A DNA stretch of 57,832 nt from Candidatus Epulonipiscium sp. (GTDB taxonomy: Bacteria > Bacillota > Clostridia > Lachnospirales > JAAYNZ01): NCBI GenBank assembly GCA_012524135.1, contig JAAYSE010000127.1, positions 1-57,832 of the forward strand, read 5' to 3'. Shown in pieces: positions 3,802 to 38,676 of the stretch. The notes beneath the pieces are model-generated. The model searched no databases and was not told the origin of the DNA. It saw only the letters and a program-made list of their open reading frames with translations. Position numbers and translations under genes: made by a program. The first letter of the stretch is position 1, and every line of letters begins with the position of its first letter.

Positions 3802-3844
3802 AAAAAGATTAACTATGGATCTATGAAAACAAGGGGAGGACAAA

Positions 3845-4915: not shown

Positions 4916-4927
4916 AGGAGGACTTTT

Positions 4928-6683: not shown

Positions 6684-6701
6684 GAATAGGAGGTATGAAA
6701 T

Positions 6702-8528: not shown

Positions 8529-8558
8529 AATAAAATTATTGTAATAAAAACAAAATAA

Positions 8559-8587
8559 TTGCAAAATAAAAAAGGGTTTTGTATAAA
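8559..8587 (+). promoter_or_regulatory. Candidate sigma-A promoter for the pilB operon
   Basis: TTGCAA (8559-8564), 17-nt spacer, TATAAA (8582-8587), inside a 112-nt AT-rich intergenic gap. Chance matches are common in AT-rich DNA. Confidence 0.35.
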
Positions 8588-8652
8588 AATAGAGAATATT
8601 ACAATATATAAAAAATTTATCATTTTACAATATAAAATAAATGGAGGAAAGG

Positions 8653-10173: not shown

Positions 10174-10189
10174 CATAAAGGAGATCAAA

Positions 10190-11410: not shown

Positions 11411-11817
11411 TGAAAAATAAAGGTTTTACCCTTATAGAAATAGCAATAGTATTATGTATTTTAGGATTATTAACGGCTATTGGTATTCCTAATCTTACTG
11501 GTTATATGCAAACCACTTATAGTAAATTAGATTTGGTTACAGGAACATTAATAGCAGAAGGAATGCTACAAGCTATGACAGAAGGATATAAAATTCAACC
11601 GACATACGATACTTACATAGAAATTAAAGAAGAAGGAATTTTGTTAGATAAGAACCAACAGTCTATTTCTCTTACTCATTATATTTCTGAAATTCCTATA
11701 CCAAAAGAAAAACATTATACTCATTTTGCGTATCAGTATACTAGCACAGGAGCTTTACGTATTGTTAAAATTCATTCAGATTCTTCGAAAGTTCAAGTAT
11801 ATCCTTTTATTCAATAA
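11410..11817 (+). CDS. pilA: Type IV major pilin candidate (prepilin, 135 aa)
   Basis: MKNKG|FTLIEIAIVLCILGLLTAIGIP is a canonical short basic leader with G-1, F+1 and E+5. The ATG overlaps the pilC stop (GTAATG). Small size and position after pilB-pilC support the call. Confidence 0.8.
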   Translation: MKNKGFTLIEIAIVLCILGLLTAIGIPNLTGYMQTTYSKLDLVTGTLIAEGMLQAMTEGYKIQPTYDTYIEIKEEGILLDKNQQSISLTHYISEIPIPKEKHYTHFAYQYTSTGALRIVKIHSDSSKVQVYPFIQ

Positions 11818-11858
11818 AAGATATAAAATATAAAAATAAGAAAGGCAAGAATGGTAAA

Positions 11859-13283
11859 ATGAGGAAGAAAATTTATGGTATTCTTCATATCAGTAATTAT
11901 TGGATTACGGGAATGATAATAGAAAGAAAAAAACATGAAACTATAATACTTTCGTCACAAAAATGGGAAATATGCCAATCTACCGATAAACTAGAAGATC
12001 AGTTAGCAGAAAGTACCAAAAAAGTTTTACTTTCATTTTTAACTACATTATCCAATAAAAAGGTCAAAATTATTTTAACATTTTCACATTCTGACATTTT
12101 AACAAGAGAAATTGAATTACCGAAGACATCTAAAAAAGAAAGAGATCATATGTTACAAATTCATTTAAAATCTGTTTTACCCACTACCATTCATCAATAC
12201 TTAATTCATTCTACAAAAATTCCTAATATAGATTTTAATTTAAAACTTACGGATAAATGGCTAATTATCGCTTTACCATATACGATGGTCAAACCTTATA
12301 TTCTCTTTGTGGAAGATCAAGGGTTTCGTATTGAGAAAATTGATTATATGGGATATGATTTTCAGCAAACTCTTTTTGAGAATATAGATATTTCCAAATG
12401 TAGCACATCGTATATAGCTTTTATAGAAAAAAGAGTAGGAGAAATGAATATCTATTTATATTATAAACAACTACTTTGTTTTAGTCGTCACTATGCTTAT
12501 GAAGATAAAAATGAAGAATCGTGCTTGAACCATTTAAAGTATTTCTTAGAATTTTTTTATCATCGTATTTCTAATACTCCCTTATCTCTTATATTTATTT
12601 CTGATGAAAAAAATAAAGAAAAACATTCTTTATTTCAATTATTGGAAAGTAAAGAATATCCAATAGATAGTTACCAGCAATATGATTATCATTTATTATT
12701 TAATAATAGTTTAATAAAGGTGGATAAACCTAATGTGTTATGGACTTTTTTATCTACAAATTCTAAAAAAATTGTTGAGGATAGTTTTTTCTTTTCAAAA
12801 AGGAAGAAAAAGTTATGTTTATTTTTAATATTTTTTATGCTATTAACAGGAAGTTCTGCAATAGGACATTATTATCTATTTCAATATGAAAAATATATGG
12901 TGTCGGTTATCAAAGATTTTCATATCGAACAACAAGACTATGATTATTTTCTTCTATTGAAAAATATTTTACATAAACAGCAAACAGCTATTCATTATGT
13001 GGACATACAGCATTCGCCTAATATTGCTTTATTCGAATCGATTTCTTGGATTATAAAACAAAATGATGTTCAAATTAATACTTTAAATTATTCTAATCAT
13101 ATATGGGAAATAGAAGGCGAAGCCTTAGAATACGACTCTATTCTTCAATTTTTTCAACATTTAGAAGAAGTAGTTGTAAATCAAAAATTTTTTTTACAAA
13201 GTATTTGGAAAGATGAATCAAAGGAAAGTTACAAGAATCGATATAAGTTTCGATTTATAATATTTGAAAAGGAGGATTTATAA
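11859..13283 (+). CDS. PilM-PilN fusion-like assembly protein
   Basis: The N-terminal 300 aa or so sit in the PilM position (weak similarity). There is an internal TM (LCLFLIFFMLLTGSSAIGHYYLF) and a C-terminal PilN-sized domain. This organisation is like the pilMN fusions reported in Clostridioides T4P clusters. The RBS is weak. Confidence 0.5.
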   Translation: MRKKIYGILHISNYWITGMIIERKKHETIILSSQKWEICQSTDKLEDQLAESTKKVLLSFLTTLSNKKVKIILTFSHSDILTREIELPKTSKKERDHMLQIHLKSVLPTTIHQYLIHSTKIPNIDFNLKLTDKWLIIALPYTMVKPYILFVEDQGFRIEKIDYMGYDFQQTLFENIDISKCSTSYIAFIEKRVGEMNIYLYYKQLLCFSRHYAYEDKNEESCLNHLKYFLEFFYHRISNTPLSLIFISDEKNKEKHSLFQLLESKEYPIDSYQQYDYHLLFNNSLIKVDKPNVLWTFLSTNSKKIVEDSFFFSKRKKKLCLFLIFFMLLTGSSAIGHYYLFQYEKYMVSVIKDFHIEQQDYDYFLLLKNILHKQQTAIHYVDIQHSPNIALFESISWIIKQNDVQINTLNYSNHIWEIEGEALEYDSILQFFQHLEEVVVNQKFFLQSIWKDESKESYKNRYKFRFIIFEKEDL

Positions 13284-13289
13284 AATATT

Positions 13290-13883
13290 ATGAAAAGAAA
13301 GATAAATAAAAAATTTTATAGGATAGATGTATTATTATTTATGATTGGTATGATATTTCTTTTTATCAATTGTCAGAATATACAAATGTGTAAAAACATT
13401 TATTCCTATAAAAAACAAAGTAAACAGTGGGAAAGAGAAGGTCTAAAAAGAGGATTTGTTTTAAAAGATCAAATTCAATTATTACAAGAAGAATATGAAA
13501 ATAAAGAGAAATTACTTCCATTATTTTTTAAACAAAAAGATATTATTCAGGTTATTCAAGAATTAGAACAAAAAATACATATCATATTTACATCTATTTA
13601 TTTTCACGATATAGAATCTTGTTCAATACAAAAAGATATTATATTAAATAATCAAAAGGTAGATTTATCTTTTGTAGGTACTACGGATCAATTTCAAAAT
13701 TTATGTTATGAAATACAACATATGAATTTACCAGTAAAGATAGAATATTGTTATCTATCACAGGAAGCAGATAAACAAATAAGGGGAACATTAAACTGTA
13801 CTTTTTATGGATTTGACAATTTAACACTAGGGGAGAGTGTACAAAATGTATCTGCAAAATGTGAAAAAGCAAACGAACAATAG
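13290..13883 (+). CDS. PilO-like bitopic assembly protein
   Basis: N-terminal TM (IDVLLFMIGMIFLFI), a coiled-coil segment, 197 aa, and position after pilMN. RBS AAGGAGGA. Confidence 0.45.
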   Translation: MKRKINKKFYRIDVLLFMIGMIFLFINCQNIQMCKNIYSYKKQSKQWEREGLKRGFVLKDQIQLLQEEYENKEKLLPLFFKQKDIIQVIQELEQKIHIIFTSIYFHDIESCSIQKDIILNNQKVDLSFVGTTDQFQNLCYEIQHMNLPVKIEYCYLSQEADKQIRGTLNCTFYGFDNLTLGESVQNVSAKCEKANEQ

Positions 13884-14223
13884 AGGATTTATTTTAGTGG
13901 AGTTAGCTATTGGTATCGCTACTGCTTTAGTAGTAGTTTTATTTTTACATCGATTATGCCTTACAATTTGTTATTTAAATCAAGAAGCAAAATATAAAAT
14001 GGAAGCTCATTTTATTGCTCAACAATATATGGAACGAATAAAAGCAACTGGTTTATTCTATGATGAAGAAACACAATATATAGATATAAAAGATGGATGG
14101 GAGATATCTATTGTACTTCAACCTATAAAACATGTGTCAAATTCTTTATATGCAATAGGTTTAAAAGTATCAAGAGAAGAAAAGAATTATATGTCTTTAG
14201 TTTCAATGGTCATACAAGAATAG
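13846..14223 (+). CDS. Minor pilin with a prepilin-type N-terminus
   Basis: MYLQNVKKQTNNRG|FILVELAIGIATALVVVLFL. The ATG at 13846 is preceded by GGGGAGAG. It overlaps the preceding gene by 38 nt. Confidence 0.65.
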   Translation: MYLQNVKKQTNNRGFILVELAIGIATALVVVLFLHRLCLTICYLNQEAKYKMEAHFIAQQYMERIKATGLFYDEETQYIDIKDGWEISIVLQPIKHVSNSLYAIGLKVSREEKNYMSLVSMVIQE

Positions 14224-14230
14224 ATAATAG

Positions 14231-15025
14231 GTGAAAAAGATGAATCAAAATCAAAAACAGAGCGAAAAAGGTAGTATATTAATTTGGATTATGCTTTGGG
14301 CTTGTATTGCTATCTTTATGGGTATTACTATAGTAGCTGTTGGTATGGAAAGTCATGAGCAAAAGATTCATCATCAACAAGGTAAAATGGCTTTTTATAT
14401 AGGAGAAGGTGCTTGTACTTATACTTATGCACAATTAGAGTATATTGTAGAGCAAGCTATTTTAAATGGATATCAGGAAGCGATAAAAGATATGCTTGTT
14501 GCTTTAAACGATGAGAAACAACGGAGAGATGATTGGTTAATGGAAGAGGATGGGGAAGAAAACTTGAATTGTAGATGGGGAAGCTTTGATTATGATTCTA
14601 TTATTCAAAAAGGATTTGTTTATGGTTATACTTCGTATATTCAACAGTTCTTTAATAATAAAAAGGCAAGAGATGAACTTTTATTTTTATTAGAAAATGA
14701 ATTTTGGGATCAATATATCGAAAATTGGTTGATAAAATCAAAAATAGAAAAAGTTTATTTTTATCCAAAAGAAAAAGAAGTTTTATGTTATTTTACAATG
14801 AGAACAAATAGTTATGTAGATCAAGTTTTTCGTACTTTTCAATCTCTTTATACGATTTATATACCAGATAGTAGTACTATTTCTTATAAAGTAAAATGGT
14901 CGTTAATTCCTACTGTAGAAGGGATTAGATGTGAATTTGATTTTGATTTAGATCAAGATCCACAACTTTTTGCTCCTTATTCTCAATGGATTACGATGAA
15001 AGTGAGTAATCAATATGAAAGTTAA
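14231..15025 (+). CDS. PilX-N-like minor pilin
   Basis: SEKGSILIWIMLWACIAIFMGITIVAVG is a hydrophobic N-terminus without a canonical cleavage motif. Start is GTG 14231 or ATG 14240. Confidence 0.45.
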   Translation: MKKMNQNQKQSEKGSILIWIMLWACIAIFMGITIVAVGMESHEQKIHHQQGKMAFYIGEGACTYTYAQLEYIVEQAILNGYQEAIKDMLVALNDEKQRRDDWLMEEDGEENLNCRWGSFDYDSIIQKGFVYGYTSYIQQFFNNKKARDELLFLLENEFWDQYIENWLIKSKIEKVYFYPKEKEVLCYFTMRTNSYVDQVFRTFQSLYTIYIPDSSTISYKVKWSLIPTVEGIRCEFDFDLDQDPQLFAPYSQWITMKVSNQYES

Positions 15026-15470
15026 ATTAAAATCAAAAGGAATGACTTTAATCGAAGTTATAATTGTAGTAGCTATTATTGGTATTGTTATTGGAATGAT
15101 ACTACCTAATCAATTATTTTACCAACATTACAGGCTAAAAATTTATGCAAAACAATTGTGTAATGATATACGTTATGTTAGAGATTGGAATATGAATTAT
15201 AAAGAATCTTGTGCTCTTACTCTTCAAACAGATGGTTATTCTATTATAAAAAATAATAGAGTTTATAAAAAAAATCCTACTTCTTCTTTATTTGTTATCG
15301 CTTATGATCAAAAACATTCCATAATACAATTTACAATGGAAGGTGTACCTAAAATGGGTGGTACAACTATTACAGTAAGTACTAAAAAGAAAGATTATTA
15401 TATGGAAATTACGATTGTCCCAGCAAGTGGAAGGGTGTTTTTGAAGGATGAGATTCAAAAAATCAAATAA
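15015..15470 (+). CDS. GspH/FimT-like minor pilin (prepilin-type)
   Basis: MKVKLKSKG|MTLIEVIIVVAIIGIVIGMILP, with G-1 and E+5. Confidence 0.7.
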   Translation: MKVKLKSKGMTLIEVIIVVAIIGIVIGMILPNQLFYQHYRLKIYAKQLCNDIRYVRDWNMNYKESCALTLQTDGYSIIKNNRVYKKNPTSSLFVIAYDQKHSIIQFTMEGVPKMGGTTITVSTKKKDYYMEITIVPASGRVFLKDEIQKIK

Positions 15471-15969
15471 AGGATTGTCATTAATAGAAGTAATAATAGG
15501 ATGGATGTTTTTAGTATTTTTCTTTTTATTTTTTGGTAGTGTTTTTTTTAGATACATAAAGGAATTTAGAAAATTAGAAGATGAAATAACAGTACAATAT
15601 AATTTAGAAGAAGTTATGGAAAGATGGGGAAGGGGGATTTATGAATCACAAAAAATTATTGATATCGAAAGTATTAATCGAGAGAATATATTATATCAAT
15701 CCGGTTCTTATCAAATTAGAATGATTGGTTTTGATAATAAGCTATATTTTCGCCATGGACAAACATTGAATCGTTTTTATTATGGAGAAAAAAAAGCTTA
15801 TATTAATACTTTATGCGGAGATTACATTGAAGCTGTTTTTCTTACACCGTTGCCAGAAGAAAGTACTTTTTTAAATTGTAAAGGAATAAAAGTACGGTTA
15901 AAAGGATCAAAAAATAAAACTTCTCTTTTTTTAGAAACTGAATTTTATTTTCGTTTTGTAGAGGAATAA
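15448..15969 (+). CDS. Minor pilin (prepilin-type N-terminus)
   Basis: MRFKKSNKG|LSLIEVIIGWMFLVFFFLFFG. Last gene of the pilus cluster. Confidence 0.6.
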   Translation: MRFKKSNKGLSLIEVIIGWMFLVFFFLFFGSVFFRYIKEFRKLEDEITVQYNLEEVMERWGRGIYESQKIIDIESINRENILYQSGSYQIRMIGFDNKLYFRHGQTLNRFYYGEKKAYINTLCGDYIEAVFLTPLPEESTFLNCKGIKVRLKGSKNKTSLFLETEFYFRFVEE

Positions 15970-26144: not shown

Positions 26145-26222
26145 TAAAATGTAAAAATATAGGGATACAAAAGTTAAACGATTTATAAAATATACGTTAT
26201 GATAGTTATAGGAGGTAAATAT

Positions 26223-26630
26223 ATGGAGGGCAATAAAGCAGTTACAATACAAGGAACGGAAAAAGTAGGTCAAGTACAGATTGCTGATGAAGTTGTGGCT
26301 ATTATTGCAGGTTTAGCTGCTATTGAAGTAGAAGGTATCGCAGGAATGGCAGGAAATTTTACAGGAGATTTAGTAGAAATTTTAGGCATAAAGAATTTAT
26401 CCAAAGGAGTTACTGTTGCAGTCGGTAATGAAGATGTTGCTGTTGATTTAGATATTGTTATACAATTCGGAGTGAAAATTCCAGAAGTAGCCAAAGCAGT
26501 TCAACAAAAAGTAAAAAATTCTATTGAGACGATGACTGGTTTAACGGTTACAGAAGTAAATCTTCATATTACAGGGATTCACTTTGAAAAAATGAAACAG
26601 AAAAAAGTAGAAAACATAGAAGAAAGATAG
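26223..26630 (+). CDS. Asp23/Gls24-family alkaline shock protein
   Basis: VQIADEVVAIIAGLAAIEVEGIAGM. ATG 26223 follows GGAGG. Same position as B. subtilis yqhY, after spoIIIAH. Confidence 0.85.
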   Translation: MEGNKAVTIQGTEKVGQVQIADEVVAIIAGLAAIEVEGIAGMAGNFTGDLVEILGIKNLSKGVTVAVGNEDVAVDLDIVIQFGVKIPEVAKAVQQKVKNSIETMTGLTVTEVNLHITGIHFEKMKQKKVENIEER

Positions 26631-26742: not shown

Positions 26743-27168
26743 ATGAGCAGACGTTTAGCTCGAGAAGAAGTTTTTAAGCTTGTATTTCAAATAGATTTTG
26801 TACAAAATTCAGACGAAAAACGTGAACAAATTGAATTATATTTTTCTCAAAATCCAAAGTTAGAAAAACTAGATACTCGTTTTATTATAGAAGAAGTAGA
26901 GGGTATACAATCTTATCAAAAACAAATTGATGCTATTTTGGAACAGTATGCAGAAGGATGGAAAATTTCTCGAATGGGAAAAGTAGATTTAGCTATTTTA
27001 CGATTGGCTGTGTATGAAATATTTTATGCTTTGGATATCCCAATTAGAGTAAGTATTAATGAAGCAGTAGAATTAGCTAAAAAATTTGGTGAAGAGTCTT
27101 CTCCTGCTTTTGTTAATGGCGTATTAGGAAAAATTGTTTCTCAAGAGCAGGTAGATGCAGATGATTAA
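26743..27168 (+). CDS. nusB: Transcription antitermination factor NusB
   Basis: RRLAREEVFKLVFQ, 141 aa, NusB fold signature ...INEAVELAKKFG...FVNGVL. Confidence 0.9.
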   Translation: MSRRLAREEVFKLVFQIDFVQNSDEKREQIELYFSQNPKLEKLDTRFIIEEVEGIQSYQKQIDAILEQYAEGWKISRMGKVDLAILRLAVYEIFYALDIPIRVSINEAVELAKKFGEESSPAFVNGVLGKIVSQEQVDADD

Positions 27169-28381
27169 TCAACGTATTTTTACTGTTAGTGAAATTAATC
27201 GGTATATAAAAGGTATCTTTGAAGAAGATATTTTATTAAGTGGATTATTAATAAAAGGAGAAATTTCCAATTTCAAACCTCATCGTTCAGGACATATTTA
27301 TTTTACTCTAAAAGATGAAGGAGGAGCTGTATCTTGTGTTATGTTTCGTAGTTATGCACAACATTTGATGTTTGTTCCGGAAAATGGTATGTCTATTATC
27401 ATTAAAGGCTATGTTTCTTTATATGAAAAATCAGGACAATATCAGGTATATGTTCAAAGTATGGATCCAGCGGGTAAAGGAACATTACAATTAGCTTATG
27501 AACAATTAAAAAACAAACTACAACAAAAAGGTTATTTTGATGAGGAGAGGAAAAAGAATATTCCCTTTTATCCCAATACAATAGGAATTATTACATCAGG
27601 TACAGGAGCTGCTATTCGTGATATTATTCAAATTGCAAAACGTAGAAATCCATCCATATCTTTGGTGGTATATCCCGTACTCGTACAAGGAAATGAAGCT
27701 GCTGCAAGTATTGCAAATGGTATTAGGCAATTTAATCGTTGGGGGCAGGCAGATGTATTGATTATTGGAAGAGGTGGAGGTTCCTTAGAAGATTTATGGG
27801 CCTTTAATGAAGAAGTAGTAGCTCATGCTATTTTTGAATCTAAAATTCCGATTATATCAGCTGTTGGACATGAAACTGATTTTACCATTTCGGATTTTGT
27901 GGCTGATTTGCGAGCGCCTACTCCCTCAGCAGCAGCAGAATTAGCAGTTCCTTCTAAAATGGAACTGGTAACTCAAATACATGCACAAAAAAAACGTTTA
28001 GATACTTTAATGCAGTATAAATTAAATAGTTTGATAGAACAATTATATTCACTTAAAAATCGTTCTTTTTTTCGTCACCCTCTAGAATTGATTCATCCTT
28101 ATCAGCAATATATGGATCAAATAGAAAGAGCTCTTTATAAAAATATAAATAACTTATTAAAAGATTTTCGTACTCAGTTATTGCAAATGATGGATAAATT
28201 GGAGCTTTTATCTCCGTTATCTCATTTACAGCGTGGATATAGTATTATATTAAATAAAGATAATTCGTTAATAACTTCAGTTAATCAAATTAAGAAAGAG
28301 GATCTATTATCTCTTAAGATCCACGATGGAACAGCTAATGTTTGTGTAATCAATGTTCATAAGGAGAGTGAGAATGAATGA
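27155..28381 (+). CDS. xseA: Exodeoxyribonuclease VII large subunit
   Basis: FTVSEINRYIKGIFEEDILLSGLLIKGEISNFKPHRSGHIYFTLKD (OB-fold N-terminus) and GRGGGSLEDLWAFNEE. Confidence 0.9.
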   Translation: MQMINQRIFTVSEINRYIKGIFEEDILLSGLLIKGEISNFKPHRSGHIYFTLKDEGGAVSCVMFRSYAQHLMFVPENGMSIIIKGYVSLYEKSGQYQVYVQSMDPAGKGTLQLAYEQLKNKLQQKGYFDEERKKNIPFYPNTIGIITSGTGAAIRDIIQIAKRRNPSISLVVYPVLVQGNEAAASIANGIRQFNRWGQADVLIIGRGGGSLEDLWAFNEEVVAHAIFESKIPIISAVGHETDFTISDFVADLRAPTPSAAAELAVPSKMELVTQIHAQKKRLDTLMQYKLNSLIEQLYSLKNRSFFRHPLELIHPYQQYMDQIERALYKNINNLLKDFRTQLLQMMDKLELLSPLSHLQRGYSIILNKDNSLITSVNQIKKEDLLSLKIHDGTANVCVINVHKESENE

Positions 28382-28623
28382 AAGAACAAGAAAGCATGAG
28401 TTTTGAAAAAGCACTAAAAAAATTAGAGGAGATTGTTGAACACTTAGAAAAAGGAGATACTTCTTTAGAAGAGTCATTAAAATATTATCAAGAAGGAGTT
28501 ATATTAGCAAATTTTTGTACTAAGCAATTAGAGAAAGCAGAAAAACAAGTTTTAGTATTACAAGAAGAAAACAATGGAGAGTTTAAGACAGATTTATTTT
28601 TAGAAAAGGAGAGTTCTTATTGA
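28378..28623 (+). CDS. xseB: Exodeoxyribonuclease VII small subunit
   Basis: SFEKALKKLEEIVEHLEKGDTSLEESLKYYQEG, 81 aa, coupled to xseA. Confidence 0.9.
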   Translation: MKEQESMSFEKALKKLEEIVEHLEKGDTSLEESLKYYQEGVILANFCTKQLEKAEKQVLVLQEENNGEFKTDLFLEKESSY

Positions 28624-29504
28624 ATATAGAATCTATGTTAGCTAACAAAATACAAAAAGTAGACAAGCTGTTAAAGAATTATTTAACCCCTAATTCAGAG
28701 TATGAAGAAAAAATTTATGAAGCCATGAAATATAGTATTTTCGCTGGCGGAAAGAGAATTCGTCCTATTTTAATGATAGAAGCATATAATGTGTTAAATA
28801 ATTATGAAAAAGCTGTCGAACCTTTTGCTGTAGCTATTGAAATGATCCATACATATTCCTTGATTCATGATGACTTACCAGCTATGGATGATGATGATTA
28901 TCGTCGTGGAAAATTAACAAATCATAAAGTATATGGAGACGGGATTGCAATTTTAGCAGGGGATGCACTATTAAACTTAGCTTTTGAAATCATGATAGAA
29001 GGATCTTTACAAAATGATATGAAATTAGGGTTACAGGCTATGAAAATTCTTGGTGAAAGATCTGGAGTTCATGGAATGATTGGTGGACAAGTCATAGATC
29101 TTTTATCTGAAAACAGAGAAATATCAATAGAAACAGTAACTTACATACATGAGCATAAAACAGCAGCTTTAATTCATGCAGCAGTAGAAGTAGGTGTTCT
29201 TTTAGCAGGAGGAACAAAAGAACAACTAGAAAAAATGAAAAAATTTGGATATTATCTAGGTATGGCTTTTCAAATTCAAGATGATATTTTAGATAAAATT
29301 GGTAAACAAGAAATTTTAGGTAAGTCAATAGATAGTGACGAAAAAAACAAAAAGGCAACATACGTGTCTTTTTATGGATTAGAAAAATCAAAAGAACAAG
29401 TTATATTGTTATCAAAAAAAGCTTTTGAGTGTTTAAACTATTTTGGAGAATCTGCTGACTTTCTTAAGCAATTAACAAAATATTTGATGGATCGAAATTA
29501 TTAG
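28620..29504 (+). CDS. ispA: Farnesyl/geranyl diphosphate synthase (polyprenyl synthetase)
   Basis: First Asp-rich motif LIHDDLPAMDDDDYRRGK and second motif FQIQDDILD. TTG start after AAGGAGAG. Confidence 0.9.
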   Translation: MNIESMLANKIQKVDKLLKNYLTPNSEYEEKIYEAMKYSIFAGGKRIRPILMIEAYNVLNNYEKAVEPFAVAIEMIHTYSLIHDDLPAMDDDDYRRGKLTNHKVYGDGIAILAGDALLNLAFEIMIEGSLQNDMKLGLQAMKILGERSGVHGMIGGQVIDLLSENREISIETVTYIHEHKTAALIHAAVEVGVLLAGGTKEQLEKMKKFGYYLGMAFQIQDDILDKIGKQEILGKSIDSDEKNKKATYVSFYGLEKSKEQVILLSKKAFECLNYFGESADFLKQLTKYLMDRNY

Positions 29505-29515
29505 GGAGGTGCCAA

Positions 29516-29956
29516 ATGAAAGAATGGAGTTTTTATGGATATAATTATGTACTTAGTGTATCCATTATTTCATGGTTTGTGGCACAATTATTCAAAGTTT
29601 TTTTAGTTCTTATTCAAACAAAAAAAATTGATTTTTCTCGATTTATTGGTTCTGGAGGAATGCCTAGTTCTCATTCAGCTTTTGTTAGCGCTATGGCTAT
29701 ATCAGTAGGTAGACAGGAAGGATTTCATTCACCATTATTTGCGGTATGTTCTGTTTTGGGTCTTATTGTTATGTATGATGCTGCAGGAGTTAGAAGAGCA
29801 GCAGGAAAACAGGCTACGGTTTTAAATAAAATTATTGATGAGTTTGGTGATTCAAATTTAAAATTAGAAGAACGATTAAAAGAATTATTAGGACATACAC
29901 CTTTTGAAGTTATTGCAGGAGCTATTTTGGGAATGATTATAGGTTTTGTCTTGTAA
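29516..29956 (+). CDS. Divergent PAP2-family membrane protein (YuiD/DUF212-like)
   Basis: GGMPSSHSAFVSAMA...YDAAGVRRAAGKQA...LGHTPFEV, a PAP2-like motif set, about 4 TM segments, 146 aa. Confidence 0.7.
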   Translation: MKEWSFYGYNYVLSVSIISWFVAQLFKVFLVLIQTKKIDFSRFIGSGGMPSSHSAFVSAMAISVGRQEGFHSPLFAVCSVLGLIVMYDAAGVRRAAGKQATVLNKIIDEFGDSNLKLEERLKELLGHTPFEVIAGAILGMIIGFVL

Positions 29957-29989
29957 TATTTAAGATTTTAAGTATCCAATTTATTGATA

Positions 29990-30018
29990 TTGAATTTTTA
30001 TGATAACTCTGTTATAAT
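29990..30018 (+). promoter_or_regulatory. Candidate sigma-A promoter immediately upstream of the structured RNA region
   Basis: TTGAAT (29990-29995), 17 nt, TATAAT (30013-30018), with extended -10 TGt. The predicted start near 30025 would give an RNA of about 600 nt before the oapA RBS. Confidence 0.5.
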
Positions 30019-30024
30019 ATTTTA

Positions 30025-30640
30025 CACAAGACTTTCTCAAAATTGAAGATGCAGTATTCTAGTCAGTCTTTTTAATTCTGAAGACGGGCCTAAAAATCCG
30101 TTTAAGGGCATATCGATGAAGTTCCTGGTGTTGGCTGGTGACGCCCAGTTGCGGGCTGATGCTGGGAGTTAAGATTGGAGGGCGATCCACAATGGCATGT
30201 GGGCGTTGACCCTTCTTTCGTGGAGACTTATGTATGTGGATATAGTGGATATCTACAACATAAGAATAAACCTGTCATGCGGTTTAATAAGCTGTGGACA
30301 GTGTAGCCTGCCTTGCGTAAAAAGTGGAGGATATTGATTTACACAAATTTTTTTTGGCCAAGAAAAATTTGTGACTGTCAATAAAAACCCTTTTTGCAAA
30401 AGAGGCTAGGAATTAAAAATACTGTTGAGGAAAACTCCTAGACTGTTCGATTAGAGATATATATAGGATTACAGTGCGGCTAATCGGTGATCTAGCTCTA
30501 TTGTTGGCAACACAATAGGAATTTATTTAAAGGGAAACCACTTTTTTGGTGACAAAAAAGTATAGATTCGGGAAAACCTGCTAGACCTTAAGCTGCAAAA
30601 TTTACTATATATATTATCTTTAATTTTGAGAATTTATTGA
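30025..30640 (+). ncRNA. ole: Candidate OLE (ornate, large, extremophilic) RNA; the ends are approximate
   Basis: No ORF of 60 aa or more in any frame across 29957-30652. GC rises sharply: I count 35/60 G+C in 30121-30180 against 10/60 in 30661-30720. Many local helices are visible (30187-30202, 30227-30264, 30342-30373, 30406-30441, 30498-30518, 30540-30561). The context xseA-xseB-ispA-[RNA]-4TM protein-dxs-tlyA-nadK-argR-recN matches the published ole locus. Confidence 0.7.
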
Positions 30641-30652
30641 AGGAGATTTAGT

Positions 30653-31270
30653 TTGAATAAAAAATCATCCAATCAGAAAAATAAAATTAAATTTAAAACA
30701 ACTTACCATAAATCTATTAACTATTCATGGCTAGTGGGAATTACGATAGGAACTTTATTGTTAGCCATTTTATTTGGTTATATATCTTTGATTTTTATGG
30801 AAAAATTAAATGTTATTGGTGCTTCTTTGATTTTATTTCTTTTAATTTTTATTGGGGTTTTTTTTGATATTTTAGGAATTGCAGTAACAGCTGCTGATGA
30901 GGTTCCCTTTCACTCTATGGCTTCAAATAAAGTATCTGGTGCGAAAGAAAGTATTTTTTTAATTCGTAATGCAGGTATCGTGGCTAATTTTTGTAATGAT
31001 GTTATTGGAGATATTTCGGGAATTATTTCTGGTACAGCAACAGGAGCAATTATACTAAAAGTAAATCAAATTTATTCTATTAATTCTGTATTATGGAGCA
31101 TACTTTTAACAGCCATGGTAGCTGGAATAACTGTAGGCGGAAAAGCCTTAGGGAAAGAATTAGCATTAAAAAAAGCAAATGAAATTATATATCAATTAGG
31201 TATGATTTTACATATATATTCGCTTTTGAAAAAAGCTATTGTTAAAAAAAGCAATGAAAATAACATATAA
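30653..31270 (+). CDS. oapA: OLE-associated protein A-like four-TM membrane protein
   Basis: 205 aa with four hydrophobic helices and Asp-containing motifs FFDILGIAVTAADE and NFCNDVIGDISG. TTG start after AAGGAGA. Lies immediately 3' of the candidate OLE RNA and 5' of dxs. Confidence 0.65.
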   Translation: MNKKSSNQKNKIKFKTTYHKSINYSWLVGITIGTLLLAILFGYISLIFMEKLNVIGASLILFLLIFIGVFFDILGIAVTAADEVPFHSMASNKVSGAKESIFLIRNAGIVANFCNDVIGDISGIISGTATGAIILKVNQIYSINSVLWSILLTAMVAGITVGGKALGKELALKKANEIIYQLGMILHIYSLLKKAIVKKSNENNI

Positions 31271-31308: not shown

Positions 31309-31382
31309 AAAAAAATATGTTAAAACAAAGAAAAATATGGTATGATATAGACATGTTTGGATTTTATAAAGAAGGTGAAAAT

Positions 31383-33284
31383 GTGAAAAATCAATTAGAA
31401 CAAATTCATTCACCGAAAGATCTCAAAACATATAATATAAAACAATTAGAAGCGTTAGCTAAAGAGATACGAAGTTTTTTACTACAGTCCATTAGTCAAA
31501 CAGGTGGACACTTAGGTTCTAATTTGGGTGTTGTAGAATTAACACTAGCTTTACATTATTGTTTTGACTCTCCTAAGGACAAGCTGATTTGGGATGTAGG
31601 TCATCAATCTTATGTTCATAAAATAGTAACAGGTCGAAAAGATTTTTTTTCTACTTTGAGACAAACAGATGGACTGAGTGGCTTTCCTAAAACAGTGGAA
31701 AGTAGTCATGATATCTTTAATACAGGTCATAGTTCTACGTCTATTTCAGCTGGTTTAGGTTTAGCTAAAGCAAGAGACTTAGCCAAAAAAGATTTTTCTG
31801 TTATTTCTATTATTGGAGATGGATCTTTAACAGGTGGCATGGCATTTGAAGCACTAAATGATGCAGGAAGAGGGAATACAAATTTGATTGTCGTTTTAAA
31901 TGATAATCAAATGTCTATTTCTCGAAATGTAGGAGGTTTATCTCAACATTTAAGTAAAATAAGAACAGAACCTATATATCTTGAAATAAAAGATGATATG
32001 GAACAAATATTAAAAAAGATTCCAGGTATTGGACCAGGTTTAATTCAAACTATGGGAAAAGCTAAAGAAAGTATTAAGTATTTTTTTATTCCAGGTATTT
32101 TATTTGAAGAATTAGGTTTTACTTATGTAGGCCCTATTGATGGTCATAACCTAGAATCATTAATTACTGTCTTTAAAAAAGTGAAGAATATGAAAGGTCC
32201 TATCTTTGTTCATGTAAAAACAATTAAAGGGAAAGGGTATCATCCAGCAGAAACGAAGCCTTGTAATTATCATGGTGTAAGTCCATTTTCTTTAAAAACT
32301 GGGAAACCGATACAAGATTCAAAACAAGAAACTTATTCTGAAGTTTTTGGGAAAACATTAGTACGTTTGGCACATAAGAATAAAAAAATAGTAACCATTA
32401 CAGCAGCTATGCCAGAAGGAACAGGATTAGGTTTTTTTTCAAAGATGTATCCTCAACGTTTTTTTGATGTAGGTATTGCAGAACAACATGCGGTAACTTT
32501 TGCAGCTGGTTTAGCTACAGGAGGATATAAGCCGGTGGTAGCTATTTATTCATCCTTTTTACAAAGAAGTTATGATCAAATTCTTCATGATGTTTGTTTA
32601 CAAAATCTTCCTGTTGTTTTTGCTATTGATCGTGCTGGCATTGTAGGAGCCGATGGAGAAACACATCAAGGAATATTTGATTTATCTTATTTATCGCATA
32701 TTCCTAATTTAGCTTTAATGGCACCTAAAAATAAAATAGAATTTATACAAATGTTAGAATATGCTATTTCCTATCAGGGTCCTATAGCTATTCGTTATCC
32801 ACGAGGAAGTGTTTCTAATATTTGTTCCACCATACAAACTCCTATTTATCATGGAAAAGTTGAATACTTATTAAAAGGAGAAGATATTGGAATTATTGCT
32901 ATTGGGAAAATGGTTGATACAGCTTGGAATGTAGTAGAAAAATTACATAAAAGAGGATTTCATCCATCTTTAATTAATGCGAGATTTGTATCACCTATAG
33001 ATGAAAAAGCTATTTTACAAATAGCCAATCAAAATTCTTACTTATTTACTATAGAAGATAATATTATATCTGGTGGCTTTGGTATGAAAGTATTAGAAAT
33101 TTTAATGAAATATGAAATAAATCACATTTCATTTCACGCTTTTGGATTTCCTAAAAAATTTATTGAACAAGGAAATTGTGAACAACTTTATCTTAAATAT
33201 GGTTTGGACTCAGATAGTATAGCAAGGGAAATGATAATGCGATGTAAAAAAAATAGAATTAAAGGTGATGTGAAAAATGGATAA
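31383..33284 (+). CDS. dxs: 1-deoxy-D-xylulose-5-phosphate synthase
   Basis: GGHLGSNLGVVELTLALHY and the ThDP motif GDGSLTGGMAFEALN, plus transketolase-like domains. GTG 31383 after GAAGGTG gives the usual N-terminus (..QLEQIHSPKDLK). The track start 31317 begins only 9 nt after the terminator's T-tract. Confidence 0.9.
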   Translation: MKNQLEQIHSPKDLKTYNIKQLEALAKEIRSFLLQSISQTGGHLGSNLGVVELTLALHYCFDSPKDKLIWDVGHQSYVHKIVTGRKDFFSTLRQTDGLSGFPKTVESSHDIFNTGHSSTSISAGLGLAKARDLAKKDFSVISIIGDGSLTGGMAFEALNDAGRGNTNLIVVLNDNQMSISRNVGGLSQHLSKIRTEPIYLEIKDDMEQILKKIPGIGPGLIQTMGKAKESIKYFFIPGILFEELGFTYVGPIDGHNLESLITVFKKVKNMKGPIFVHVKTIKGKGYHPAETKPCNYHGVSPFSLKTGKPIQDSKQETYSEVFGKTLVRLAHKNKKIVTITAAMPEGTGLGFFSKMYPQRFFDVGIAEQHAVTFAAGLATGGYKPVVAIYSSFLQRSYDQILHDVCLQNLPVVFAIDRAGIVGADGETHQGIFDLSYLSHIPNLALMAPKNKIEFIQMLEYAISYQGPIAIRYPRGSVSNICSTIQTPIYHGKVEYLLKGEDIGIIAIGKMVDTAWNVVEKLHKRGFHPSLINARFVSPIDEKAILQIANQNSYLFTIEDNIISGGFGMKVLEILMKYEINHISFHAFGFPKKFIEQGNCEQLYLKYGLDSDSIAREMIMRCKKNRIKGDVKNG

Positions 33285-34107
33285 GCAACCAAAAGAAAGA
33301 CTTGATATACTTTTGGTAAACAATCATTTAGCGTCTTCTCGAGAACAAGCAAAAGCTTTTATAATGGCTGGACAAGTTTATGTAGAGGATCAAAGAGAAG
33401 ATAAACCAGGGGCGAAATTTGCTACAGATGTAAATATTATTTTAAAGCAAAATCAAAAACCGTATGCAAGTAGAGGTGGGTATAAATTAGAAAAGGCATT
33501 ACAATCTTTTCCTATTTCTTTAAATAATAAAGTTGCTTTAGATATAGGAGCTTCAACTGGAGGGTTTACGGATTGTATGCTTCAAAATGGAGCTAAAAAA
33601 GTATATGCAATAGATGTAGGATATGGTCAACTAGCTTGGGAATTACGACAAGATTCTAGGGTAATCACCATGGAAAAGACGAATATACGTTATGTACAGC
33701 CAGAAGATATACCAGAAAAAGCAGATTTTGCTTCGATTGATGTATCTTTTATTTCTCTGACAAAAGTATTACCAGCTGTAAAGCATCTTTTGAAAGATAA
33801 TGGTGAAATTGTATCTTTAATTAAACCTCAATTTGAAGCAGGTAGGGAGAAAGTAGGGAAAAAAGGAGTAGTTAAGGATCCTAAAATTCATAAACAAGTA
33901 ATTTTAAATATTATTAATTTTGTTCATTCACAAGGCTTATTTGTTTATCAATTAGATTATTCACCTATTAAAGGACCAAAAGGAAATATTGAATATTTAT
34001 TATATATTGGTTTAACTCCTTTAGTATCAAAATCAGATTTAAATATAGATGACTGTAAAGATCAAGTACAACAGATTGTACAAATGGCTCATGAAAACCT
34101 TAAATAA
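33277..34107 (+). CDS. tlyA: TlyA-family rRNA 2'-O-methyltransferase
   Basis: S4 domain RLDILLVNNHLASSREQAKAFIMAGQVYV and SAM motif DIGASTGGFTDCMLQNGAKKVYAIDVG. Confidence 0.85.
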   Translation: MDKQPKERLDILLVNNHLASSREQAKAFIMAGQVYVEDQREDKPGAKFATDVNIILKQNQKPYASRGGYKLEKALQSFPISLNNKVALDIGASTGGFTDCMLQNGAKKVYAIDVGYGQLAWELRQDSRVITMEKTNIRYVQPEDIPEKADFASIDVSFISLTKVLPAVKHLLKDNGEIVSLIKPQFEAGREKVGKKGVVKDPKIHKQVILNIINFVHSQGLFVYQLDYSPIKGPKGNIEYLLYIGLTPLVSKSDLNIDDCKDQVQQIVQMAHENLK

Positions 34108-34118
34108 GGAGGAGTGAG

Positions 34119-35018
34119 ATGAAAATTATAGGACTTGTTCCTAATTTAAAAAAGGATATTGATTTACAACATACTCGGTCTTTAATTCAATGGTTAGAAC
34201 AAAAAAAGATACAAGTAAAAATTCCTCAAACTATAGGTGGTATTTTAGGACGAATAGATTTAGAGTGTTCGATAGAACTTTTATATCAACAAGCTGACTT
34301 TTTGGTTGCTTTAGGTGGTGATGGAACTATTTTAAGTACAGCTCGTCAGGCAGCTCCTTTTTCCAAACCTATTCTAGGAGTGAATTTGGGCAAATTAGGT
34401 TTTTTAGCAGAAGTAGAAAAAACAGCTTCGTTTACTGCTTTAGAACAAATATTGCAAGGTCATTATACAATTGAAAAACGTATGATGTTGGATGCCATCA
34501 TCATTTCTCAAAATAAAATTTTATCAGATCCCTTTATTGCTTTAAATGATGCAGTGATTACAAGAGGATCTTTTTCACGAATGGCTGATTTATATATTTA
34601 TGTTAATAATGAATTTGTAAATCGTTTTTCAGCAGATGGAATTATTATTTCTACACCTACAGGTTCTACAGGATACAATTTATCTGCTGGAGGACCTATT
34701 ATACATCCTTCAACAGAAGCAATGGTTATTACTCCTATTTGTTCTCACTCTTTATATGCTAGATCTTTTGTTGTTTCCCAACAAGATATTGTTACAATTC
34801 ATATTGGTGGACAGTATATAGATCAAGAAAATAATAAAATAGAAGAAGAGATTCCCCATGAAATGATGTTAACCTTAGATGGACAATTGGGATATAGTTT
34901 ACAAAGAGAGGATAAAATTGTTATTCAAAAATCATCTTACTATACTCATCTTATTAAAACAACAGAACAAAATTTTTACGATATTGTAAGGAAAAAAATC
35001 GTAGGAGGTAGAAAGTGA
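34119..35018 (+). CDS. nadK: NAD kinase
   Basis: GGDGT motif and ADGIIISTPTGSTGYNLSAGGPI. Confidence 0.9.
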   Translation: MKIIGLVPNLKKDIDLQHTRSLIQWLEQKKIQVKIPQTIGGILGRIDLECSIELLYQQADFLVALGGDGTILSTARQAAPFSKPILGVNLGKLGFLAEVEKTASFTALEQILQGHYTIEKRMMLDAIIISQNKILSDPFIALNDAVITRGSFSRMADLYIYVNNEFVNRFSADGIIISTPTGSTGYNLSAGGPIIHPSTEAMVITPICSHSLYARSFVVSQQDIVTIHIGGQYIDQENNKIEEEIPHEMMLTLDGQLGYSLQREDKIVIQKSSYYTHLIKTTEQNFYDIVRKKIVGGRK

Positions 35019-35027
35019 GAGATAACA

Positions 35028-35492
35028 ATGAAAGCAGAAAGACAATCTAAAATTTTACAGTTAATCAAAAAATACGAAATTGAAACTCAAGAAGAACTTG
35101 CAAATCAATTAATTGCTAGTGGATTTCAAGTTACTCAAGCAACTATTTCAAGAGATATTAGAGAGTTGAAACTTACCAAAATTACAACTTCTACAGGTGG
35201 ACAAAAATACGCTGTATTAAATCCACAGGAACAACATATATCAAACAAACTGATTCGTGTATTTAGAGATGCTTTTGTTTCCATGGATCGTGCTCAAAAT
35301 ATTTTGGTTATTAAAACATTAACAGGGATGGCTATGGCAGTGGCTGCTGCCTTAGATGCTATGAATTTCCATGAAATTATTGGTTGTATTGCTGGAGATG
35401 ATACTATTTTTTGTGCTATTCGAACAGAAGAAGATACTCTTGAAGTCATGAAAAAATTACAACGCTTAACGACTATACGTGTCTTGGATTAA
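35028..35492 (+). CDS. argR: Arginine repressor
   Basis: Winged-helix ...ETQEELANQLIASGFQVTQATISRDIRELKL and the C-terminal GCIAGDDTIF motif. Confidence 0.9.
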   Translation: MKAERQSKILQLIKKYEIETQEELANQLIASGFQVTQATISRDIRELKLTKITTSTGGQKYAVLNPQEQHISNKLIRVFRDAFVSMDRAQNILVIKTLTGMAMAVAAALDAMNFHEIIGCIAGDDTIFCAIRTEEDTLEVMKKLQRLTTIRVLD

Positions 35493-35519
35493 ATTCTATT
35501 ATTAGATGGGAGGAAATGG

Positions 35520-37220
35520 ATGCTAATCCATCTATATATTAAAAATATTGCATTAATTGATGAAATTCATCTTGATCTTCATGAATCTTTTAATATTTTA
35601 ACAGGTGAAACAGGTGCAGGAAAGTCTATATTAATTGATTCTATTAATTTAGCTCTTGGTGGTCGAGTGAATAGAGAACTTATCCGAAATAAAGAGGAAG
35701 AGGCAGTAGTAGAATTGCTTTTTCAAATTCATAATGAGACCACCTTGAAAATACTAGAAAAGTTTGGTTTATCCACAGATGAAGAACAATGCTTATTAGT
35801 TTCTAGAACAATTCAAAAAACTGGTAGAAGTTTATCTCGTATTAATGGTAGGTTAGTAACTTTAAGCATGCTAAAAGAGATTACAGCACATTTAATTGAT
35901 GTACATGGGCAACACGAACATCAATCTTTGCTCAATACGAGTATGCATATAGAATTATTAGATCAATTTTGTCCTAAAGAATTAAAAGAATTAAAACAAC
36001 AACTTTCTATATTATATCAAAAATATAGTCAATTTAAACATCAACTTAATCGATTTAGTTTTAATGAACAAGAAAAAATAAGACAATTGGATTTATTAGA
36101 ATTTCAGCTTAACGAAATAAATCAAGCTAATTTAAGAGAAGAAGAAGAAGAAAAATTATTAGTTAAGCGAAAAATTTATTCCAATGCTCAAAAAATATCT
36201 ACAGGACTTTATCAAGTATATCAATTATTACAAGGTGAAAATCAACAAACTAAATCGGTAATTGAACAATTAGGTGAAGTAATTAGTATTTTGGGGGAAT
36301 TAAGTACAATAGATCCCTCTCTAAATTCATTGTATCAAAATATAGAAACCATTCATATTCAGTTACAAGAGTATAATCGTGATTTATCAACTTATTTAGT
36401 CGAAATAGAAAATGATCCTCATATATTAGATCAAATAGAAAATCGTTTACATATTATTTATAATTTAAAACGGAAATATGGTTCTTCTATTACAGAAATT
36501 TTGCGATATAAAAAACAACTTGAATCTGAAATTGAAATCTTACAACATAGTCAAGAGCATAATGAATATATTCGTAAAGAAATGAATAAAATCCAAAAAC
36601 AAATGGAAGAATTATGTCATAGTATAACAATTATAAGAAAAAAAACAGGACTTCAATTAGAGCAACAGATTGAAAAGCATCTTCAATCTCTTCAATTAAA
36701 AGATTCTAAATTTAAAATTTCTATCGAAAATAAGATCAATATTTCATCTAATGGCTGGGATAAAGTGGAGTTTCTAATTTCAACGAATATAGGGGAACCT
36801 GTAAAACCTTTGACCAAAATTGCCTCTGGTGGAGAAATGTCTCGTATTATGTTAGCTATAAAAACAGTATTGGCTGATGTAGATGATATTGAAACCCTTA
36901 TTTTTGATGAAATAGATACGGGAATTAGTGGTCGAACAGCACAAAAAGTAGCAGAAAAATTAATGTTTATTGCAAAACAACATCAAATAATTTGTATTAC
37001 TCATTTACCTCAAATTGCTGCTATGGCAGATCGGCATTATTTAATTCAAAAAACAACAAAAAATACTCATACAACTACATATATTCATTTATTATCAGAT
37101 GAACAAATTATACAAGAATTAGCTCGTTTGGTTGGAGGAGCAGTTATTACTTCAACTACTTTAAAAAACGCAAAAGAAATGAAGCAATTAGCGAATCAAT
37201 TAAAAGTCAATAAAAACTAA
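35520..37220 (+). CDS. recN: DNA repair protein RecN
   Basis: Walker A LTGETGAGKSILIDS, long coiled-coil, signature ASGGEMSRIMLAIK and Walker B LIFDEIDTG. Confidence 0.9.
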   Translation: MLIHLYIKNIALIDEIHLDLHESFNILTGETGAGKSILIDSINLALGGRVNRELIRNKEEEAVVELLFQIHNETTLKILEKFGLSTDEEQCLLVSRTIQKTGRSLSRINGRLVTLSMLKEITAHLIDVHGQHEHQSLLNTSMHIELLDQFCPKELKELKQQLSILYQKYSQFKHQLNRFSFNEQEKIRQLDLLEFQLNEINQANLREEEEEKLLVKRKIYSNAQKISTGLYQVYQLLQGENQQTKSVIEQLGEVISILGELSTIDPSLNSLYQNIETIHIQLQEYNRDLSTYLVEIENDPHILDQIENRLHIIYNLKRKYGSSITEILRYKKQLESEIEILQHSQEHNEYIRKEMNKIQKQMEELCHSITIIRKKTGLQLEQQIEKHLQSLQLKDSKFKISIENKINISSNGWDKVEFLISTNIGEPVKPLTKIASGGEMSRIMLAIKTVLADVDDIETLIFDEIDTGISGRTAQKVAEKLMFIAKQHQIICITHLPQIAAMADRHYLIQKTTKNTHTTTYIHLLSDEQIIQELARLVGGAVITSTTLKNAKEMKQLANQLKVNKN

Positions 37221-37350
37221 GTATATTTTTCCACTTTTTATTATTCCTAAGTATTTGTTTTTTTAAGATAAATTGGCTTGTATAATCCTACTTCAAAAAG
37301 GATATTTTAAAGATATAAAAGATAGCTTTGGAGTTAGGAAGTGGGAAAGT

Positions 37351-38676
37351 ATGACATCAAAAATAAAACCTAAAAAAAGGATATTAAAAACTATTGTTTC
37401 TTTTTTTCTTCTTGTGATCGTTGTTGCAATTTTTTCAGTTCCTTTATTTTTAGTTCCTGAAGAGTTACGAATGATAGCAGGTATCGATCATAAATTTCAG
37501 CTAAATCTTCCAGTACAAGCTAAAATTATACCTGCAAAAGAAGGAGTATTAAAAGTAAATAATAAACCTGTAACAGATAATATTAATATTAGTTTACGTA
37601 AACCTTTTATTATGGAATCTTCTGAAACAGGTACACTAGATATGTATCTTCATTTATTTGGAATGATTCCCATTAAAAAAATGACGGTCGACATCATGCC
37701 TAATATAAAATTAATTCCTTGTGGAAAAACAGTAGCTGTACGCATTCAGACAGATGGAATTATGGTTTTAGGTACTGGAGTTGTTCATGGTTCAAATGGT
37801 GAAATTTATGAACCAAGTAAAGGAATTTTAGAATCTGGAGATCTAATATTAGAGATAAATGAGATTCCAATAAATACAATACAACAATTAATTGAAATGA
37901 TTAATAACTCTTCTGAAAAGCCTTTAAAAATAAAAATAAAAAGAGAAGAAGAATTGATTGAAACATTGATTCAGCCTGTAAAAAGTGAAGATCAACGAAC
38001 ATACAAACTTGGAGTTTGGGTTCGAGATAGTACTCAAGGAATTGGTACCGTTACTTATATTAATCCTAATACAATGACATATGGAGCATTAGGACATGGA
38101 ATTACTGATATTGATACAAAACAATTAATACCTATTCGCACAGGAACAATTATGGAAACGGAAATTACATCTATTCGCAAAGGTAAGAAAGGATTACCAG
38201 GAGAATTAAGTGGAACAATTATAGAAACTTCAGACACAATACTTGGTAATGTTGATGCAAATACTCAGCAAGGAATTTTTGGTGTTTTAAATTTAGATCA
38301 AGAAGATGTTTTAGATTATTCTTGTTATCCTATTGGTTTACAACATGAAGTAGAAGAGGGACCGGCTATTATACGTACCAACATATCCGGAAGCACTATT
38401 GAAGAATTTACAATTGATATTCAAAAAATTATTCGATATCATGATAATATAGGAAAAGGAATGATTATTAAGATTACGGATCCACGGTTATTAAGTCAAA
38501 CTAATGGTATAATACAAGGAATGAGTGGGAGTCCTATTATCCAAAATGATAAAATTATTGGTGCTGTTACTCATGTATTTGTTCAAGAACCATCGAAAGG
38601 ATATGGTATATTTATTGAAAATATGCTTAAAAGGGAGAAAGATATGGAAAATACTGGTAAAATTGCAATTAAGTAA
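37351..38676 (+). CDS. spoIVB: SpoIVB signalling serine peptidase (S55)
   Basis: N-terminal TM, PDZ-like ESGDLILEINEIPINTIQQL, and catalytic region GMSGSPIIQNDKIIGAVTHVF. ATG 37351 chosen over TTG 37273. Confidence 0.85.
   Translation: MTSKIKPKKRILKTIVSFFLLVIVVAIFSVPLFLVPEELRMIAGIDHKFQLNLPVQAKIIPAKEGVLKVNNKPVTDNINISLRKPFIMESSETGTLDMYLHLFGMIPIKKMTVDIMPNIKLIPCGKTVAVRIQTDGIMVLGTGVVHGSNGEIYEPSKGILESGDLILEINEIPINTIQQLIEMINNSSEKPLKIKIKREEELIETLIQPVKSEDQRTYKLGVWVRDSTQGIGTVTYINPNTMTYGALGHGITDIDTKQLIPIRTGTIMETEITSIRKGKKGLPGELSGTIIETSDTILGNVDANTQQGIFGVLNLDQEDVLDYSCYPIGLQHEVEEGPAIIRTNISGSTIEEFTIDIQKIIRYHDNIGKGMIIKITDPRLLSQTNGIIQGMSGSPIIQNDKIIGAVTHVFVQEPSKGYGIFIENMLKREKDMENTGKIAIK

Follow-up and report, generated by a model that had tools for sequence, protein, structure and literature searches.

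Introduction

Few conserved bacterial RNAs with a chemistry still to be worked out are as large as OLE, which makes individual representatives useful for comparative and structural work. The family has already been catalogued extensively, with 2,822 OLE RNAs in GTDB Bacillota (PMC11332333) and a set of 8,585 non-redundant sequences (PMC12286853). In Bacillus halodurans, the proximal promoter is active and lifts OLE expression more than 100-fold, with 5' ends mapping near P1 (PMC3413148), and 3' processing of the RNA has been reported in the same organism (PMC11332333). Full-length OLE RNAs have been defined against variants, with P7 and P8 marking the full-length type vs. variant 2 (PMC11332333).

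Several protein and RNA contacts of this RNA have been described. OapA, of which a DxxxD motif is the hallmark (PMC11332333), associates with OLE RNA in a 2:1 ratio and brings it to the membrane, according to Block et al. 2011 as related in PMC12265935. [quoted passage not shown] In cryo-EM OLE dimers, the A-rich loop L4 forms the A-A bridge B1 (PMC12286853, PMC12265935), the L5 and L6 loops form bridge B2 while the k-turn comprises the OapC/bS21 sites (PMC9723947, PMC12054373, PMC12286853), and the palindromic L9 makes a symmetric kissing loop as bridge B3 (PMC12286853); one such cryo-EM structure, PDB 9LCR, is cited in PMC12265935. The stem formed by P3 and P3.1 has been proposed to span the membrane (PMC12265935). 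Here we analyze a stretch of 57,832 nt, the whole of which we call the window, in which an OLE homolog had been proposed from inspection of the letters.

Materials and methods

The whole window was scanned against Rfam at the gathering threshold. To collect relatives, a single genome of each GTDB species was scanned for the conserved OLE motif AAGGGCANATCGATGAAG (18 nt, of which 17 are specified), which yielded at least 120 loci; with the window sequence as query, nhmmer detected OLE in about 110 of these, 93 of them full length. In nine of the motif loci (Roseateles, Acidobacteriota, Alistipes, Streptomyces and others) nhmmer detected no OLE, and these were set aside as chance matches. The motif without a detectable OLE in non-Bacillota was seen at L014, L023, L049, L076, L082, L101, L102 and L117, which were taken as chance matches; the genomes carrying only the motif belong to Desulfobacterales, Roseateles, Acidobacteriota, Alistipes, Azonexus, Neptunomonas and Streptomyces. 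The 93 OLE copies from the matches listed were aligned together with the window copy (94 sequences) by MAFFT L-INS-i, and the Rfam structure was projected onto the alignment, with slid-partner controls. By construction, 17 alignment columns are conserved, as they are fixed by the search motif. Stem names follow PMC12265935, as interpreted here.

Results

Identity of the OLE RNA gene

The scan yielded RF01071 (OLE) as the sole Rfam match in the window, at 30030-30636 on the + strand (607 nt), with a score of 512.2 bits against a cut-off of 50 and an E-value of 2.2e-147; the match spans positions 1-616 of the 616-position model and is not truncated. This was the covariance-model check that the original prediction had proposed, and its claim of an OLE homolog is borne out by the end-to-end match together with covariation in orthologous loci and the expected flanking genes. 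Projection of the consensus structure showed that ole has 158 of the 159 model pairs, 148 of them (~94%) as standard pairs and 10 as non-standard ones.

What had been read directly from the letters also held. Six-frame analysis lists no ORF of at least 60 aa overlapping 29957-30652, the largest one inside being 48 aa; the G+C counts (35 of 60 in 30121-30180 and 10 of 60 in 30661-30720) are exact, and the OLE span, at 38.0% G+C vs. 29.4% for the window, is the G+C-richest 607-nt block of all 57.8 kb. The six self-complementary segments listed are all present, and five of them are family helices, namely P6.1 (30187-30202), P7 (30227-30264), the tip of P9 (30342-30373), P13 (30498-30518) and P14.1 (30540-30561). 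The sixth, CTAGGA/TCCTAG at 30406-30441, was rejected as a local stem because both of its arms are used by other helices, the left one by the P9 base and the 3' strand of P3, and the right one by a small GAG/CUC hairpin and the 3' strand of P2.

The minimum free energy (MFE) of the ole + strand is -211.3 kcal/mol (z = -8.8 vs. dinucleotide-preserving shuffles) and that of the - strand only -151.2 kcal/mol; this advantage of 60 kcal/mol fits an RNA read from the + strand, which is the strand of all flanking genes.

Gene neighbourhood and host

The gene order xseA-xseB-ispA-(DUF212)-ole-oapA-dxs-tlyA-nadK-argR-recN, recognized in the original prediction, was confirmed by Pfam and NCBIfam. The features of the locus are as follows.

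27155-28381, + strand: xseA (Pfam/NCBIfam)
28378-28623, + strand: xseB (Pfam/NCBIfam)
28620-29504, + strand: ispA, FPP synthase (Pfam/NCBIfam)
29516-29956, + strand: DUF212 (divergent PAP2) membrane protein gene, between ispA and ole (PF02681, E 1e-51)
29990-30018, + strand: putative ole-proximal sigma-A promoter (consensus scan)
30030-30636, + strand: ole (RF01071)
30640-31270, + strand: oapA, with RBS AAGGAGA at 30640-30646 and a TTG start at 30653, for a 205-aa membrane protein
31317-37220, + strand: dxs, tlyA, nadK, argR and recN, downstream of oapA

Beyond this cluster, nusB lies 5' of xseA, spoIVB and spo0A lie 3' of recN, and the spoIIIA operon and a yqhY/Asp23 gene are found upstream. 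The yqhY/Asp23-family gene (26199-26630) is situated directly 5' of nusB-xseA, and yqhY ranks highly in a published list of genes associated with ole (PMC12265935); just past the right end of the window, the parent contig carries another Asp23 gene (L126 20753-21026). Neither an OapB nor an OapC gene was found within the 58-kb window. The start codons of two genes show ordinary ambiguity: spoIVB, with a TTG at 37273 (37273-38676, 467 aa), has a public call of 441 aa, and ispA, with a TTG at 28620 (294 aa), is called at 289 aa on one contig. Farther upstream, 2137-15969 harbors a type IV pilus-like cluster (PilM, PilN, T2SSE ATPase, T2SSF and N-methyl prepilin) interleaved with a 608-aa protein that weakly matches the SLH domain, another that weakly matches DUF4900, and some 8 ORFs without a Pfam hit.

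The sporulation genes encoded in the window (spoIIIA, spoIVB, spo0A), the presence of proteins identical to those of the window on several biogas-fermenter metagenome contigs (up to 218 kb), and the nearest OapA and OLE relatives in Natranaerovirga, Vallitaleaceae and Cellulosilyticum (for OLE, among the matches listed) together point to an uncultured spore-forming anaerobic member of the Clostridia, close to these three lineages, as host, which falls within the anaerobic or extremophilic Bacillota that carry the OLE family.

The DUF212 gene between ispA and ole had been regarded as a local variation of the locus, and this did not stand. Among the matches listed, 65 loci have ispA no more than 1.5 kb upstream, and in 15 of these DUF212 is the gene that separates it from ole (L013, L022, L027, L029, L037, L039, L043, L055, L062, L068, L077, L090, L092, L116 and L118), so that the arrangement is recurrent rather than specific to the window. 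In that same set, all 15 loci are Clostridia-type and none is from Bacilli, with lineages comprising Thermincola, Caloramator, Alkaliphilus, Cellulosilyticum, Vallitaleaceae, Oscillospiraceae and others. In Symbiobacterium (L095), DUF212 still adjoins ispA while ole is 2.3 kb away, which suggests that DUF212 travels with ispA and not with ole. Across three loci (L095, L107 and L111), ole is found 2.3-5.3 kb from ispA (or ispA-DUF212), vs. a usual gap of less than 0.5 kb; insertions into the cluster are a possible cause of this spacing. We found no mention of an association of OLE with DUF212/PAP2 in the full-text searchable literature. One might propose that the Clostridia-type DUF212 phosphatase is a lineage-specific partner of OLE-OapA, linking the RNP to turnover of isoprenoid or lipid-carrier phosphates, and we consider this improbable; the DUF212 gene of the window is taken here as a neighbour of ole.

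Expression signals and oapA

The candidate promoter upstream of ole comprises a -35 element TTGAAT (29990-29995), a 17-nt spacer and an extended -10 element TGtTATAAT (30010-30018; TGnTATAAT), from which a transcript start at about 30025 is predicted, in agreement with the left boundary drawn in the original prediction. A single match of this kind means little because the DNA is A/T-rich; as a counterweight, TGNTANAAT occurs within -70 to +12 of OLE in 67 of 108 loci among the matches listed (62%), vs. 1.4% of other 82-nt windows of the same loci, a 44-fold enrichment (binomial p ~1e-95). The sequence around this upstream promoter element is not conserved across the OLE loci among the matches listed. 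An extended -10 promoter directly 5' of ole is a family-wide feature (62% among the matches listed), of small practical value.

Downstream, the RBS of oapA starts 4 nt after the end of the Rfam match, and no terminator-like site was found between ole and oapA in a scan of the window locus. Two things follow from this layout: 1) ole and oapA must share transcripts; 2) the 3' end of ole must come from processing.

The product of 30653-31270 matched no Pfam or NCBIfam family at default thresholds. Its homologs in the database number over 4,500, CorB or CNNM-TM being the label of some, and it is 48-77% identical to the aligned database relatives. At a relaxed E-value, a sub-threshold match to PF01595 (CNNM) was seen (16.9 bits vs. 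a cut-off of 28.4, E 0.005). The AlphaFold2 model (mean pLDDT 79) comprises four long helices (residues 24-51, 54-83, 97-137 and 143-203) with which the hydropathy peaks coincide, and the best six Foldseek PDB matches of this model are all CorB/CorC CNNM domains (7M1T, 7M1U, 7CFG, 7CFF), with weak scores (E 0.05-1.3, TM 0.41). The sequence DVIGD occupies residues 116-120, and both aspartates, D116 and D120, are retained in every one of the 91 ole-downstream proteins among the matches listed. From synteny, the DxxxD motif, the weak CNNM match and the four predicted helices, we judge that this product is OapA. It resembles known OapA in its position after ole, its length of about 200 aa, its four long hydrophobic helices and its invariant DxxxD, and its kinship with the CNNM/CorB/MpfA transmembrane domain would be a distant one, the published relationship between OapA and CorB being reproduced here, weakly.

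An OapA homolog lies 3' of ole in 82 of the 84 loci with room for one, among the matches listed. Two full-length OLE copies lack an OapA homolog within 1.3 kb downstream: an Ammoniphilus MAG (L015), where dxs is directly 3' of ole, and the Clostridiales MAG Gsp477_bin49 (L106), where none of the usual neighbour genes is present.

The shared transcripts and the closeness of the oapA RBS also raise the reading that the region amounts to no more than a long structured 5' leader, riboswitch-like or an attenuator, that regulates oapA-dxs in cis, rather than a discrete trans-acting RNA. We regard this as very improbable, given that the same architecture in B. halodurans yields a single, very stable and highly abundant processed OLE (PMC3413148), that conservation extends over 600 nt and takes in loops for protein binding and dimerisation that have nothing to do with the RBS, and that neither the model projection nor the MFE fold contains a structure sequestering the RBS.

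Helices, protein sites and conservation

Besides the helices of the Rfam consensus, a search for conserved antiparallel stacks in the 94 sequences (among the matches listed) recovered four long-range stems, P1, P2, P3.1 and P3, which are absent from that consensus; P1 and P3 were recovered independently by the MFE fold. The elements of the RNA are listed below.

30045-30050 with 30616-30621, + strand: P1, with strong covariation
30051-30055 with 30442-30446, and 30059-30062 with 30438-30441, + strand: P2, 99% paired and nearly invariant
30064-30067 with 30421-30424, + strand: P3.1
30069-30078 with 30410-30419, + strand: P3, 10 perfect A/U-rich bp, of which the inner five covary strongly
30083-30102, + strand: P4 hairpin, with the A-rich loop CCUAAAAA at 30089-30096
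30115-30121, + strand: k-turn strand GAUGAAG
30122-30168, + strand: P5/P5.1, with loop GCCCA at 30143-30147
30173-30219, + strand: P6/P6.1, with loop AUGGCA at 30192-30197
30219-30226, + strand: J6/7 k-turn strand CGUGGAGA
30227-30264, + strand: P7, with a loop 6 nt shorter
30272-30301, + strand: P8
30310-30406, + strand: long P9 arm, with palindromic loop UGGCCA at 30355-30360 (GGCC at 30356-30359)
30456-30615, + strand: 3' domain, P12 to P15 region
30498-30518, + strand: P13, CUAUUG-U-UG[GCAA]CACAAUAG, with GNRA loop GCAA at 30507-30510 and a one-nucleotide bulge
30519-30569, + strand: P14/P14.1, with GNRA loop GUGA at 30549-30552

In the window, P3 and P3.1 together make 14 bp, with one C/U mismatch between the two parts. 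Among the matches listed, L4 reads CCTAAAAA in 64 of the 94 aligned sequences, the k-turn strand reads GATGAAG in 94 of 94 and the P5.1 loop GCCCA is found in 90 of 94; in the same alignment, the dimer-bridge loops CCUAAAAA, GCCCA, AUGGCA and UGGCCA are the majority forms of the family. With all bridge loops at consensus, the window OLE would be expected to dimerise. The P13 hairpin carries both features required of an OapB site, a GNRA cap and a one-nucleotide bulge. As P7, P8, the long P9 and the OapB site of P13 are all present, the window OLE is not a reduced variant.

Relatives among the matches listed are on average 63% identical to the window ole (93 copies), the closest one at 79% being from an Eubacteriales MAG, followed by Cellulosilyticum and Vallitaleaceae. 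Covariation was strong: in the 94 sequences among the matches listed, standard pairs fill 86.9% of the pair cells vs. 41-44% in controls with the 3' partner displaced by 1-3 columns, a figure that, with alignment by MAFFT and not by covariance model, understates pairing if anything. Compensatory changes on both sides were seen at 140 of 158 pairs in that same set, and all 17 Rfam helices are supported. In the 93 relatives among the matches listed, 137 columns are at least 97% conserved, 17 of them fixed by the search motif; this share of about 23% of the 607 positions matches the published figure of about 25% of OLE nucleotides being more than 97% conserved (PMC12265935). The window ole agrees at all 137 near-invariant columns (the 17 motif-fixed ones included), among which are positions in the dimer-bridge loops, the k-turn strands and the OapB site with its GNRA loop and bulge. 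It departs from the relatives among the matches listed at six positions with a conservation of at least 90%.

A decaying, non-functional OLE remnant might be suspected from the 10 non-standard pairs, the shortened P7 loop and the very A/U-rich stems of the window copy. We find this less likely still than a cis-acting leader, since the match is full length at 512 bits with all helices present and 137 of 137 invariant positions retained, the promoter and oapA with its invariant motif are intact, the A/U-rich stems fit a genome of 29% G+C, and the identical sequence recurs on contigs from several independent biogas metagenomes. That the region encodes one or more small proteins, e.g. the 48-aa - strand ORF called on a JGI contig, is scarcely credible, as the ORFs of 43-48 aa that exist on both strands inside the ole region, including one gene call inside OLE at locus L002, are no longer than expected for 600 nt, the substitutions among relatives (among the matches listed) are compensatory in helices and not codon-patterned, and the conservation is explained without any protein family match. 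The public gene call in question (L002 4786-5083, - strand, 48-aa product), equivalent to the window ORF 30253-30399 (- strand), is almost certainly an artefact of protein prediction on a structured RNA.

Discussion

Our analysis of the window leads us to conclude that 30030-30636 on the + strand is, as judged from sequence, a genuine and complete ole gene, close to the family consensus and accompanied by its partner oapA in the canonical locus. The three rivals weighed above, a cis-acting leader, a relic and a small-protein gene, are all poorly supported; very probably, the region is the ole gene of a spore-forming anaerobic member of the Clostridia, specifying a full-length OLE RNA that acts as in the characterised hosts.

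By homology with Halalkalibacterium halodurans and two Clostridium species (PMC3413148, PMC7936274, PMC9723947, PMC10898510, PMC11332333, PMC12054373, PMC12286853, PMC12265935), we surmise how this RNA may function. The ole gene would be transcribed from its own proximal promoter and by read-through from xseA-ispA, with 3' trimming giving rise to a very stable OLE RNA of about 600 nt. This RNA would form a homodimer via the P4 A-rich loop, the P5.1/P6.1 loops and the palindromic P9 loop (bridges B1-B3), and OapA dimers would bind it near P2/P4a at the membrane, where the P3 stem may tether OLE to the membrane or thread through it, the transmembrane-RNA model being a hypothesis in the literature. 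OapB would dock on the P13 hairpin with its GNRA loop and bulge, while the k-turn would be bound by OapC or bS21. The RNP so formed would help the cell against cold, short-chain alcohols, excess Mg2+ and poor carbon sources, with OLE RNA probably modulating a CNNM-like ion-transport or signalling activity of OapA.

The window ole is an element of an already known kind with no distinctive variation; it brings neither a new substructure nor an unusual partner, lacks none of the elements, and would be annotated by a routine Rfam scan. Its addition gives the family one more consensus-like sequence, from biogas-reactor Clostridia, and leaves the question of the family's biochemical function unchanged. 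The recurrent clostridial arrangement ispA-DUF212-ole is a candidate for inclusion in gene-association lists.

GOLLD, ROOL and the raiA motif are likewise large, highly structured RNAs with a function that is unresolved or partly resolved; GOLLD and ROOL form homo-oligomers and are found in phage or prophage contexts, and to our knowledge none of the three has a membrane protein partner. OLE shares with them its large and ornate structure and differs in genomic context, and no Rfam match to GOLLD, ROOL or the raiA motif occurred anywhere in the window. Compared with OLE variant 1 (TANB77) and variant 2 (RF39) (PMC11332333), the window RNA shares the conserved core and, unlike them, keeps full P7, P8, the long P9 and the OapB site of P13. 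With the OLE RNAs of Clostridium acetobutylicum and C. botulinum, known as cryo-EM homodimers, it has in common the consensus L4, L5, L6 and L9 bridge loops and the J4a/5 and J6/7 k-turn strands, as compared via the family consensus only. The most extensive likeness is to the OLE of Halalkalibacterium (Bacillus) halodurans C-125. Some differences are evident: 1) the host of the window is a low-G+C anaerobic Clostridia MAG and not an alkaliphilic Bacillus; 2) its stems are A/U-rich; 3) DUF212 intervenes between ispA and ole. The two loci nevertheless have the same RNA of about 600 nt with helices P1-P15, the same invariant nucleotides, a proximal promoter, oapA directly downstream, and the same xseA-xseB-ispA ... 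dxs-tlyA-nadK-argR-recN neighbourhood.
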